NCBI GenBank assembly: GCA_001778495.1
Contig: MFHE01000006.1
Location: 1 to 53,086, forward strand
Length of the DNA: 53,086 bases
Reading direction: 5' to 3'
From: Candidatus Giovannonibacteria bacterium RIFCSPHIGHO2_01_FULL_45_24
Lineage (GTDB): Bacteria > Patescibacteriota > Minisyncoccia > UBA11713 > 2-01-FULL-45-33
Numbering within the stretch: the stretch's first letter is position 1; each line of letters opens with the position of its first letter. Of this stretch, positions 33,801-39,202 are shown piece after piece. Position numbers and translations under genes: made by a program. The notes beneath the pieces are model-generated. The model searched no databases, had not been told where the DNA came from, and was given only the letters and a program-made list of their open reading frames with translations.

Positions 33801-36800
33801 GAGGACTTTTATCGCAGGACAATTCAAACCTCTTTTGGGATGATACGAATAACAGACTCGGCATCGGGACGACGAGCCCGTGGGGGCTTCTTTCGGTAAA
33901 TCCCAACGGCATCGCCGGTCCCGCGTTCGTGGTCGGCTCTTCAACCAAGTGCGTTACCGGGGACACCAAGCTTAAACGCCGCCGCAAGAGACGCCGCAAA
34001 AACGGCAAAGGCGAGTGGGAAGAGGAAGAATATTTTGAAGATACGCGGATTGATGAGATTAAAGAAGGAGACGAAATCCTCACGCTGGACGAAAAAACCG
34101 GCAAGCTTAAGGTCTCCCGCGTCAACAAACTTATGGATATGGGCGTTAAAGAAATCTACACTCTGACCACCGCCACCGGCAAAAAAATCCGCACCACCGC
34201 TAACCATCCTTATCTTCTCGCGCCGGAATTTCCGAAAGAGCGCGTCGCGATATTCATTGACGGGGCGAATGTAGAAGCAAGTTTGCGGCATATGAGCGCG
34301 AGGATTGACTACCAAGAGCTTCTTTCGGCGTTCGGCGGGAAAGAAGCGGTTTCGCGCGCGGGATTTTATAAAGTTGATTTCCAGCACAAAGGACAAGGCC
34401 AATTCTTTACCCGGCTCAAGAAACTTGGCTATCGGCTTATTACTAAACCCCTTAAAATCATTGAACAGCGCCATCTCGCCGACGAGCATAAGGGAAATTT
34501 TGACGTTGAGATCGCCGTTGACGCCGTAGAGCGCAAAAACGCTTTTGATACTGCGGTGCTCTTCTCCGGCGATTCGGATTTTGCTTATCTTGCCGAGCGG
34601 CTCCAGCAAAATGGTAAACGTTTATTAGTTATTGCTCCTTATCGGGCCACCGGCAGAGAGCTGCGCAAACAGGCGGACGTGTTTTTAAGCCTCGCCGATA
34701 TGCCCTTCGTTGATTTCGGAGCAACTAAAAAAGCCCCGCAAAGGGGGCATCACAACCGGCTTTCACCGGCACTTCCCATCCTAGCGCAGGCGCATCCCTA
34801 TGTCAACGGGGGGGTGTGGACAAAGGTTTCCGAAATTAAGGAAGGGCAGATGATTGCGACTTCCGGCGCGAACGGCAAACCGGTCTTTGAAAGAATTATG
34901 TCAATTGAAAAAACCGCCGCCGAGCAGGTCTACGACATAGAAGTGGAAGGCACGCACAATTTCATCGGCAACGACATCGTGGCGCACAATACCTATCTCA
35001 CTGTAACCAACGGCGGCAACGTCGGCATCGGGACGACAAATCCCGGGGCAAATCTGGATGTAGATGTGCCGTCAGGTCAAGGTACTATAAGATTGAGTGA
35101 TACTAACGTTAATGTTATTAAATTATCGGACGCTTCCAGTGGTGCTACTACAAACGGGATAATATCAGTATATTCAGGTGGAACTGAAAATATCAAATTG
35201 TTTGCTAGTAGTAATGATTCATCTTGGATTAATGCTGGCAACGTCGGCATCGGGACGACGAGTCCGGCGACAAGATTGTCAGTGCAGGGAAATGGTTTGT
35301 TTTCAGGAAACCTTACAATCGCCGGGCTGACCGCTACCGGAACGGCTTCGTTCAATGCTGACGCAAGAACAAGCGGCTCATCGGCCCTTTGGAGTTTTGC
35401 CGGAGGAGCAGACACCGGTCTTACGGCTTCCACCGAGGCCACTGACGCGCAATTCAATCTGGCCAGAACAAAAACCCACGCCAACGGAACAATCACGCTT
35501 CAGCGGGACGCGTTAATCAATGCCGCGACCCATGCTTTCACCAATTTCGCTTCAGGCAACATAACCGACCTCGCGACTCTCGGGATTACCGGAGCTCCTT
35601 TGGCGGGAACTAATGCCACAACCACCAACGCCCATACCATATATCTGGGCGCCTCTGCCCTTAACGCCTCCACCACCAATTCATACGGCCTTACGGTCAA
35701 CGCCAACACGGGAGCGACAAACAATTATGCCGCGGCTTTTCTTGGCGGCAACGTCGGAATAGGGACGACCTCACCTTGGGGGCTTCTTTCCGTAAATCCC
35801 AACGGCATCACCGGCCCGGCGTTCGTGGTCGGGTCTTCAACCCAGTGCGTTACTGGGGACACTCGCCTTCGTCGAAGACGAAGGAAATCCAAAGGCAAAA
35901 GCTCAAATGCCAAATCAAGCTCAAAGTTCAAAATCCAAAAATTGGGAGAAGACGAGGAATTCATCTATGAAGAAGTCGCGATTGTGGATGTCCAGTCCGG
36001 AGACGAAATCGCCTCCTTGGACGAGACAACCGGAAAAATTGTCTGGTCAAAAGTGAGAGCGCTTATGCATATGGGCCGAAAACCGATTATTGAGCTGGAA
36101 ACGGCGCTCGGCAGGAAAATCAGGACAACGGAAAATCATCCTTATTTTGTTCGCGAACGCGCGTCGGAACCGATTCGAGCGGTGGCGTTTATTGATTACG
36201 CGAATATAAAATCATGGCTTATTGATAAAAAGCTGCGGATTGATCTCGATTTGCTCCACAGGGAGCTAAAAACCTCCGGTGTAAAAGAAGTCAGGTTTTA
36301 CTACGGTTCTGACGAGCTGGGCAAAAATACCTCTTTTTTCGCGGCACTGCGCCGAATGGGCTACGCAGTTATCACCAAGCCAGTTCAGTACTTTGCAGTA
36401 CGGCTTTTGGATATTTTACAAAAGTCTCGGAATCGTCGATGGCTTGATGCGCTTTCACAAAATATCCGCGAGACGCTTCTTAAAGAGTCGAGCCAACTTG
36501 ATACTAAAGGCATTCGCTTGTTTGAGCCGAAAGCAAACTTTGACGTTGAGATTGCGGCAGACGCGCTGGAAATGGCTAATTCTTTTGATGCTGTTTTGCT
36601 TTTCTCCGGCGACGGGGATTTTGCGGATCTCGCGCGACGCCTTTCTGCCAAAGGCAAACAGGTAATCGTAATTTCCGGCAGGAAGTTCATGTCAGGGGTT
36701 TTGATGGGCGAAGCGGACGGGTTTGTGTTTATGGAGCAATTGGCAAAAATGATCCCCGGCCTGGTTTCTTCAGGTGAAAAGGCAAAACCTGCCTTGCGGC

Positions 36801-39202: not shown

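Follow-up and report, generated by a model that had tools for sequence, protein, structure and literature searches.

Inteins are selfish elements that normally carry a LAGLIDADG or HNH homing endonuclease as cargo and reside mostly in enzymes of replication and repair. Here we describe two inteins nested in a single gene for a tail-fibre-like protein of Candidatus Giovannonibacteria bacterium RIFCSPHIGHO2_01_FULL_45_24, on contig MFHE01000006.1 (hereafter the window, the whole stretch of 53,086 nucleotides (nt) that was analysed). Each holds, in the slot usually taken by the endonuclease, a NYN domain, a predicted nuclease of the PIN-like kind that may well serve the mobility of the intein itself. 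Both are members of a large intein family that is horizontally mobile in the Candidate Phyla Radiation (CPR, or Patescibacteria) and specialises on one conserved point of repeat proteins resembling tail fibres. Full-text literature searches, with subscription journals and supplements outside their reach, found no published description of NYN or PIN cargo in inteins or of a fibre intein family in CPR bacteria, and the family, with its new cargo class and new host niche, is apparently undescribed. CPR rRNA insertions carry LAGLIDADG and GIY-YIG endonucleases, NYN being absent from the accessible part of that text (PMC11270868), and the accessible part of the 2017 PIN-superfamily classification makes no mention of Hint or homing (PMC5499597).

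The features on which the argument rests, in window positions, are these:

30866–39202, forward strand: host gene, a single open reading frame (ORF) for a fibre precursor of 2778 amino acids (aa)
33875–33949, forward strand: upstream half of the shared insertion-site island, N-extein −25 to −1 of intein 1 (twin copy at 35771–35845)
33950–34990, forward strand: intein 1, 347 aa, ORF aa 1029–1375, with N-splicing segment (intein aa 1–95), NYN domain (96–250), linker (251–288) and C-splicing segment (289–347)
34235–34699, forward strand: NYN (PIN-like) domain of intein 1, the Pfam NYN match covering aa 98–248
34991–35845, forward strand: middle extein, 285 aa, consisting of fibre repeats with GNVGIG motifs, matching no Pfam family
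35846–37036, forward strand: intein 2, 397 aa, ORF aa 1661–2057, its NYN domain bearing an insertion of ~35 aa
36170–36775, forward strand: NYN domain of intein 2, intein aa ~109–310, matched by Pfam NYN in two stretches
37037–37087, forward strand: downstream half of the shared island, C-extein +1 to +17 of intein 2 (twin copy at 34991–35041)

Both inteins begin with Cys1, contain the block-B motif TxxH (T83-x-x-H86 in intein 1 numbering), close with His-Asn and have Thr at +1. Pfam Intein_splicing (PF14890) matched both above its cut-off (E 8.7e-22 for intein 1 and 4.7e-18 for intein 2), as did NCBIfam intein_Cterm; NCBIfam intein_Nterm was over its cut-off in intein 2 and just under it in intein 1 (22.8 bits against 24.5). 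The two are 40% identical in protein, and their interiors are 50–54% identical in nucleotides. To judge by these motifs they are two genuine class-1 inteins that look competent to splice. Between the splicing segments lies the cargo, recognised by Pfam NYN (PF01936, cut-off 24.2 bits) with E 1.1e-28 and 100.9 bits in intein 1 and E 1.7e-22 and 81.0 bits in intein 2. The acidic residues D104, D185, D208 and D210 of intein 1, together with D200, have aligned equivalents in intein 2. In neither window intein did Pfam detect LAGLIDADG, HNH or any other family of known homing endonucleases; only NYN and Hint-type families were found. A PADLOC match named 'HEase' covers only about the last 22–28 intein residues, which form a splicing block, and a search of the inteins against PHROGs gave nothing informative.

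An AlphaFold2 model of intein 1, built from an alignment of 34 relatives, reached a mean predicted local distance difference test (pLDDT) score of 88.1 and a predicted template modelling (TM) score of 0.70; confidence was low in the linker (aa 251–288). Foldseek matched the middle of the model to the NYN/LabA-like structure 2qip (E 3.9e-11, TM-score by target 0.80, 32% identity) and also to the NYN domain of MARF1, and the ends to DnaB mini-inteins (TM-score by target 0.73–0.86). Near the N-terminus, aa 7–33 (window 33968–34048) comprise a run of Arg and Lys followed by a run of Glu, and are modelled as a long β-hairpin protruding from the Hint fold. This charged hairpin may be a nucleic-acid-binding arm or an element that blocks export. 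We also observed, after the NYN domain of intein 1 at aa ~261–275 (window ~34730–34770), a tail motif of basic residues followed by G-x-H-N-R/N-L-S-P/T-A, lying in a region that is disordered in the model (pLDDT <50, residues 260–275). The motif recurs in the intein of an SMC gene described below (L036) and in the proteins P0090, P0107 and P0133; its presence in intein-borne and free-standing NYN proteins alike suggests a linear binding motif.

Much of this had been proposed in an initial annotation made from the letters and translated reading frames alone. Its coordinates (33950–37036, residues 1029–1375 and 1661–2057) proved exact, and its account of complete class-1 motifs, of an extein context common to both inteins, of a NYN domain with four catalytic Asp residues in the endonuclease slot and of a precursor shortened from 2778 to ~2034 aa by splicing was borne out by the profile searches, by the intein 1 model with its Hint and NYN folds and by residue arithmetic.

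Across the 41 NYN inteins among our database cluster representatives, D104, N107, K181, D185, G207, D208 and D210 are invariant, and so are the splice residues Cys1, TxxH and His-Asn; in species genomes, where inteins longer than 300 aa (40 of 41) were counted and G207 was not tabulated, D104, N107, K181, D185, D208 and D210 are invariant in all 40. The remainder of the domain has diverged to 21–40% identity. Invariant catalytic residues in a domain that has otherwise drifted indicate strong purifying selection on NYN catalysis.

The two inteins occupy copies of one and the same site, after VVGSST-K/Q and before TYLTVTNGG. The 75 nt upstream of the two insertion points are 87% identical (23 of 25 aa), and the 75 nt preceding them only 36%; downstream, 51 nt are 88% identical (16 of 17 aa) and the next 63 aligned nt (C-extein +18 to +50) 43%. 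An island so sharply bounded, from −75 to +51, has the shape expected of a shared target with a co-conversion tract and does not resemble a simple old duplication.

Intein-less forms of the site were found in two settings. In a complete, single-contig genome of the same genus (G001), the orthologous fibre of 2381 aa is 65% identical over the first 900 aa and its site is uninterrupted. In three of four metagenome runs (run labels X1, X2 and X4), contigs pass from position 33946 to 34990 across just two other letters, so that intein 1 is missing precisely and in frame and −1 is Ala in place of Lys. These contigs have depths of 29.5, 8.5 and 15.8, comparable to the intein-bearing contigs, but the runs consist of assembled contigs, and depth and absence therefore carry no weight. 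Two further intein-less variants occur among the contigs, one encoding the same residues as the empty site of G001; other contig joints, which fall between GNVGIG repeats with sides of <30 letters, were disregarded as artefacts of repeats or of other organisms. The residue at −1 is Ala in all four intein-less versions (that of G001, at L025 ~5846–5848, and the three contig forms) and Lys or Gln at the occupied window sites (33947–33949 and 35843–35845).

The distribution of the inteins is sporadic. Among 61 genomes (that of the window, G000, and 60 relatives), a full NYN intein is present in two, G000 and G002, and a related intein with other cargo in one (G057). In G002, which belongs to another genus, the NYN intein occupies the same site and is a mosaic: its N part is 77% identical to intein 1 and its C part 88% identical to intein 2, and its NYN domain is just 25% and 21% identical to those of inteins 1 and 2. 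Intein 1 and the intein of P0006, conversely, are related throughout (84/78/55%) yet lie at different sites. Because of these two cases, we conclude that both cargo exchange and ectopic transposition occur. Among species genomes, the inteins most similar to intein 1 (55–65% identity) come from metagenome-assembled genomes (MAGs) labelled Paceibacterota, Zambryskibacteria and Daviesbacteria, and the same-family intein of G002 (L041) reaches only 45–49%. Intein identity thus does not track host relatedness, a horizontal pattern. Sites also seem saturated: among the 169 distinct sites that are occupied, an empty look-alike within the same protein (at most 3 mismatches in 14 aa) turned up for only one, that of a mini-intein lacking nuclease cargo; the test is limited by the fragmentary state of many of the proteins. 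Homing classically leaves such marks: empty alleles, an island resembling a co-conversion tract, and saturated sites.

An exhaustive HMMER search with intein 1 returned 5326 proteins at E≤1e-3 and, at the stricter E≤1e-30, 111 (database clusters). We located the N-splicing, NYN and C-splicing segments in the 150 best database matches and parsed inteins from these and from the window protein, whose two inteins are counted. Three of 107 candidates were dropped, two lacking a Cys start (mis-set starts, P0013) and one of 700 aa that spanned two inteins (P0054). The remaining 104 complete inteins carry NYN (41), a cargo that we call X1 (32), no cargo as mini-inteins (3) or other cargo (28), the last forming smaller clusters (5, 3, 3, 2 and 2 members) or singletons. 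Thr stands at +1 in 103 of the 104 and Gln at −1 in 73, and the polybasic hairpin is found in 93 of them whatever the cargo. Nearly always the insertion lies at one same point of the fibre repeat, usually just after L-x-V-x-G-Q/H and before T-Y/A/F. Up to three complete inteins were parsed from one protein (P0005), and the segment map of P0013 has up to five pairs of N- and C-splicing segments, suggesting up to five inteins.

The X1 cargo has an RNase H-like fold, and its structural look-alikes in the atlas, which we treat as leads only, include the TerL nuclease, DDE transposases and an integrase core; the fold alignment (A4) has 16 rows, in two of which (P0085 and P0087) the cargo is poorly aligned. 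In ten proteins with alternative cargo, representing six non-NYN cargo clusters and three single cargoes, no Pfam family matched the cargo, so neither LAGLIDADG nor HNH was found there. The initial annotation had suggested a search for intein-free alleles and for inteins with other cargo at this site; both exist, as the empty sites of G001 and the contigs and the X1 cargo attest.

Scanning one genome per prokaryotic species gave 179 relatives, from which 79 loci were kept. By record title these are almost all CPR (Paceibacterota, Zambryski-, Davies-, Kerfeld-, Kaiser-, Sungii-, Giovannoni-, Taylor-, Nealson-, Gottesman- and Peregrinibacteria, and WWE3), with a few Omnitrophota and some MAGs under other, possibly automatic, labels. 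From them we parsed 73 inteins, with NYN (41), X1 (18) or other (14) cargo. One NYN intein lies outside the fibres altogether. In a Candidatus Kaiserbacteria MAG (L036 2848–6240, forward strand; intein aa 52–431) it interrupts the Walker A loop of an SMC protein (SMC_N, E 3.6e-48) and is followed by Ser at +1. Compared with the polybasic tract of the fibre inteins, the basic stretch at its N-terminus is shorter. In another protein (P0027 aa 780–1199, the same as L040), a NYN intein at the window-type site has Asn in place of Thr at +1, and this copy may be incapable of splicing.

The host protein itself resembles a tail fibre. Its C-extein matches two PHROG tail fiber families (E 3e-22 and 3e-19), it contains ten G[NK]VGI[GA] repeat motifs, and its exteins are rich in Thr, Ala, Ser and Gly. 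The remaining features of the gene are:

30905–31048, forward strand: N-terminal helix-turn-helix-like segment, aa 14–61, a weak match (Pfam HTH_17, E 0.0028, below cut-off)
31181–31255, forward strand: single hydrophobic segment, a putative membrane anchor, aa ~106–130 (Kyte-Doolittle about 1.75)
38423–38590, forward strand: Peptidase_S74 domain (Pfam E 1e-9, 39 bits against a cut-off of 22)
38948–39193, forward strand: C-terminal bacterial surface Ig-like domain (Pfam PF16403, E 1.6e-10)

The segment at aa ~106–130 comprises the most hydrophobic 19-aa windows of the entire protein and would, by its putative topology, act as the anchor. Peptidase_S74 is the intramolecular chaperone domain of endosialidase and tail fibres. 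The initial annotation had called the gene an exported fibre precursor; the tail-fibre-like character and the N-terminal hydrophobic segment agree with this, and export is a reasonable expectation for what would be an anchored surface protein. Two arrangements in this protein are unusual. A helix-turn-helix related to MerR and HTH_17, followed by a lone hydrophobic anchor, stands at the start of the fibre family (window 30905–31255; the relative P0138 has a clear MerR helix-turn-helix in the equivalent place, aa 15–63, E 5.9e-9), an odd pairing for a surface fibre. Moreover, Peptidase_S74 is not C-terminal, unlike in phage fibres, since ~200 aa lie beyond it, including the Ig-like domain (window 38423–39193).

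NYN domains are also widespread outside the inteins. In 59 of the 61 genomes there is a match at E≤1e-10, nearly always a free-standing gene of ~172 aa that is ~35% identical to the intein cargo. The source genome, which spans 531 kb in 14 contigs and is 89.8% complete, has two such paralogues, 35% and ~31% identical to the cargo of intein 1:

14943–15476 of the window, forward strand: free-standing NYN gene, 177 aa (Pfam NYN, E 8.7e-21)
G000:C14:71746–72210 (= L004 1477–1983), reverse strand: free-standing NYN gene, 168 aa (Pfam NYN, E 5.1e-33)

Their neighbours are housekeeping genes, with rpsO, a Xer-like recombinase and DUF559 (Vsr-like) in one case and mreB-mreC in another. In a tree of 78 NYN domains the housekeeping NYN genes form a tight clade of their own, and the intein cargoes fall in several deep clades, those of intein 1 and intein 2 in different ones. 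Two short free-standing proteins (P0090 and P0107) nest within the intein 1 cargo clade, with a Shimodaira–Hasegawa-like approximate likelihood ratio support of 99. Free-standing relatives are likewise seen for other homing endonuclease families. The stretch of the window around the weakly related free-standing gene, 12001–16000, has a G+C content of 0.39–0.40, against ~0.49 elsewhere.

We favour the following sequence of events. Each intein would fold after translation and excise itself by way of Cys1, the terminal Asn and the +1 Thr, leaving a religated fibre of 2034 aa. Two free proteins would thereby be released, each consisting of a Hint domain, the long charged β-hairpin and a NYN domain that is predicted to be a metal-dependent nuclease. 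In keeping with the usual role of its slot, NYN would nick or cut DNA at or near unoccupied sites, and recombinational repair would fill the cut site with a copy of the intein and of about 75 and 50 nt of the adjoining extein. Among resident inteins, cargo would be shuffled by recombination within their conserved ends, which encode the Hint domain. On this account the NYN domains, and the RNase H-like cargo of the sister inteins, would be new kinds of homing nuclease. The element has much that marks homing endonucleases, namely a nuclease within a self-splicing element, a sporadic distribution and empty target alleles; by Pfam it belongs to none of the known families (LAGLIDADG, HNH, GIY-YIG, His-Cys box, PD-(D/E)xK or EDxHD). 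We infer splicing, its timing relative to export and the action of NYN on DNA alike. The anatomy and mobility of the element, taken alone, we consider close to certain; to the full statement, in which NYN serves the mobility of the intein as a new kind of homing nuclease, we give an even chance.

Several points weigh against this account. To our knowledge, every biochemically characterised NYN domain of the PF01936 type, for example that of MARF1, is a ribonuclease (RNase). The accessible part of the 2017 classification lists the bacterial NYN group as 'function unknown' and predicts it to be an RNase (PMC5499597). In this small domain there is no evident module for sequence-specific binding of DNA. 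The lineage of the cargo is, moreover, uncoupled from insertion site: elsewhere the window-type site holds NYN domains of three deep clades as well as X1, and each NYN clade is found at many sites. This is not what a cargo-encoded specificity for a long target predicts, and it implies that the target would be chosen by the Hint domain or hairpin, through homology or by a cut that recognises structure and not sequence. The metagenome contigs were matched at ≥90% likeness, so that the empty forms may derive from related strains or species, and the Ala at −1 of empty alleles may equally reflect co-conversion, a requirement of splicing or resistance to cleavage. Finally, if the anchored fibre were exported before the inteins fold, the released inteins would lie outside the cell, unable to reach DNA.

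Some of these observations lend weight to the chief alternative, that NYN is a ribonuclease payload with no part in homing. Each fibre molecule would then release two RNase-bearing inteins, acting as a feedback regulator, in defence or abortive infection, or as an extracellular effector, and the inteins would spread by repeat-mediated recombination. The predicted or known RNase activity of PF01936 and the independence of cargo lineage and site both favour it, and the near-universal free-standing genes with their housekeeping neighbourhoods suggest an ancestry in RNA processing. PADLOC matched intein 1 to a NYN model among its candidate defence proteins (E 2.2e-15; NYN models only), the N-terminal anchor suggests export, the polybasic hairpin is widespread in the family, and unequal recombination in so repetitive a host gene could move inteins without any nuclease. 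It is harder to reconcile with the homing signatures set out above and with sister inteins that carry, at the same sites, an RNase H-like or DDE-like fold, which better fits any mobility-promoting nuclease. The same kind of NYN intein interrupts an SMC protein, which is cytoplasmic, and this argues against a role specific to fibres or export. No antitoxin-like or immunity partner was seen adjoining the host gene, whose neighbours are housekeeping genes (PCMT, YceG, TrmD, MurA, MreB and ClpB). We regard the payload explanation as unlikely, though it retains appreciable weight. Its boldest form is somewhat more doubtful still: NYN and the sister RNase H-like cargo would be released by splicing in fixed stoichiometry with a surface fibre, making this the first intein family whose cargo has a cellular or inter-cellular function, which may be RNA-level feedback, cleavage of phage RNA or, by means of the polybasic hairpin, an RNase shed at the surface of an episymbiont. 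The initial annotation had offered an addiction module, an abortive-infection RNase or a delivered effector. We found no specific support for these; empty alleles, the sporadic distribution, mosaicism, the SMC intein and the sister cargoes lean instead towards homing, the very outcome, with NYN acting on the empty allele, that the annotation had set against its own proposals.

Two further explanations seem to us very improbable. The NYN domain could be a captured copy of the cell's own gene, now functionless, in inteins that persist since precise loss is rare; the two free-standing paralogues in the genome, the short and probably degenerate cargoes and the three mini-inteins are in keeping with such a history, but six catalytic residues invariant in every intein compared, in a domain that has otherwise diverged widely, make vestigial cargo very unlikely. 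Nor do we give much credence to the view that these are bacterial intein-like (BIL) or pretoxin-HINT (PT-HINT) domains, which cleave surface proteins or make them variable and do not splice. The host is indeed a variable, repetitive, surface-type protein, and weak Pfam matches to PT-HINT and Hint exist; however, PT-HINT scored 22.2 and 13.5 bits against a cut-off of 27.7 and Hint was also below its own, while Intein_splicing was well above. The near-constant +1 Thr, the invariant Cys1, TxxH and His-Asn of the NYN inteins, the precise and in-frame intein-less alleles and the position of the nuclease within the Hint fold, not C-terminal to it, all argue for true inteins.

Two other genes of the window, both on the reverse strand, drew our attention: a 649-aa ORF that matches no Pfam family (25505–27454) and one of 336 aa that matches matrixin (Peptidase_M10) towards its C-terminus (24187–25197).

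The family breaks two habits of inteins, in that its cargo is PIN-like or RNase H-like and in that it lives mainly in repetitive surface-fibre genes; homing-type elements thus shape the surface proteins of CPR bacteria. If NYN cuts DNA, new folds would join the short list of homing endonucleases, and their compact and possibly modular build would be of interest for genome engineering. If it cuts RNA, these would be the first inteins with an enzymatic payload unrelated to homing, linking protein splicing to RNA metabolism or host interaction in unculturable organisms. In either case, natural mini-, NYN- and X1-variants at identical sites are well suited to dissecting how cargo is exchanged.

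A precedent for the recruitment of repair-type nuclease folds beside inteins is provided by the EDxHD or Vsr-like homing endonucleases of fractured genes and by I-Bth0305I; these have a PD-(D/E)xK-like fold, in contrast to the PIN-like fold seen here, and their cleavage has been shown biochemically. The free-standing NYN/LabA-like proteins (PF01936, COG1432; 2qip and the NYN domain of MARF1) share the fold, the conserved acidic residues and the domain size of our cargo, which differs in being enclosed within an intein; the extra C-terminal tail motif is carried by intein 1 and by some of the free-standing relatives. BIL and PT-HINT domains of polymorphic toxins are likewise autoprocessing domains of Hint fold in variable, surface or secreted proteins, but here the +1 nucleophile and all splicing blocks are kept, precise intein-less alleles exist and the nuclease is nested, not downstream. 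Closest of all are the canonical inteins with a nested homing endonuclease (PI-SceI, PI-PfuI, and VMA or DnaB inteins with LAGLIDADG or HNH cargo), with which the family shares its class-1 residues, its Hint fold and a nuclease placed between the splicing parts, as well as a sporadic occurrence, alleles that are precisely empty, derivatives reduced to mini-inteins, cargo relatives that exist as free-standing genes and, in the SMC intein, a member inserted in a P-loop. It differs from them in carrying NYN or RNase H-like cargo, in having as its main host a repetitive, tail-fibre-like anchored protein and not an enzyme of replication or repair, and in its several inteins per gene, a cargo lineage untied from the site and an extra charged β-hairpin near the N-terminus.

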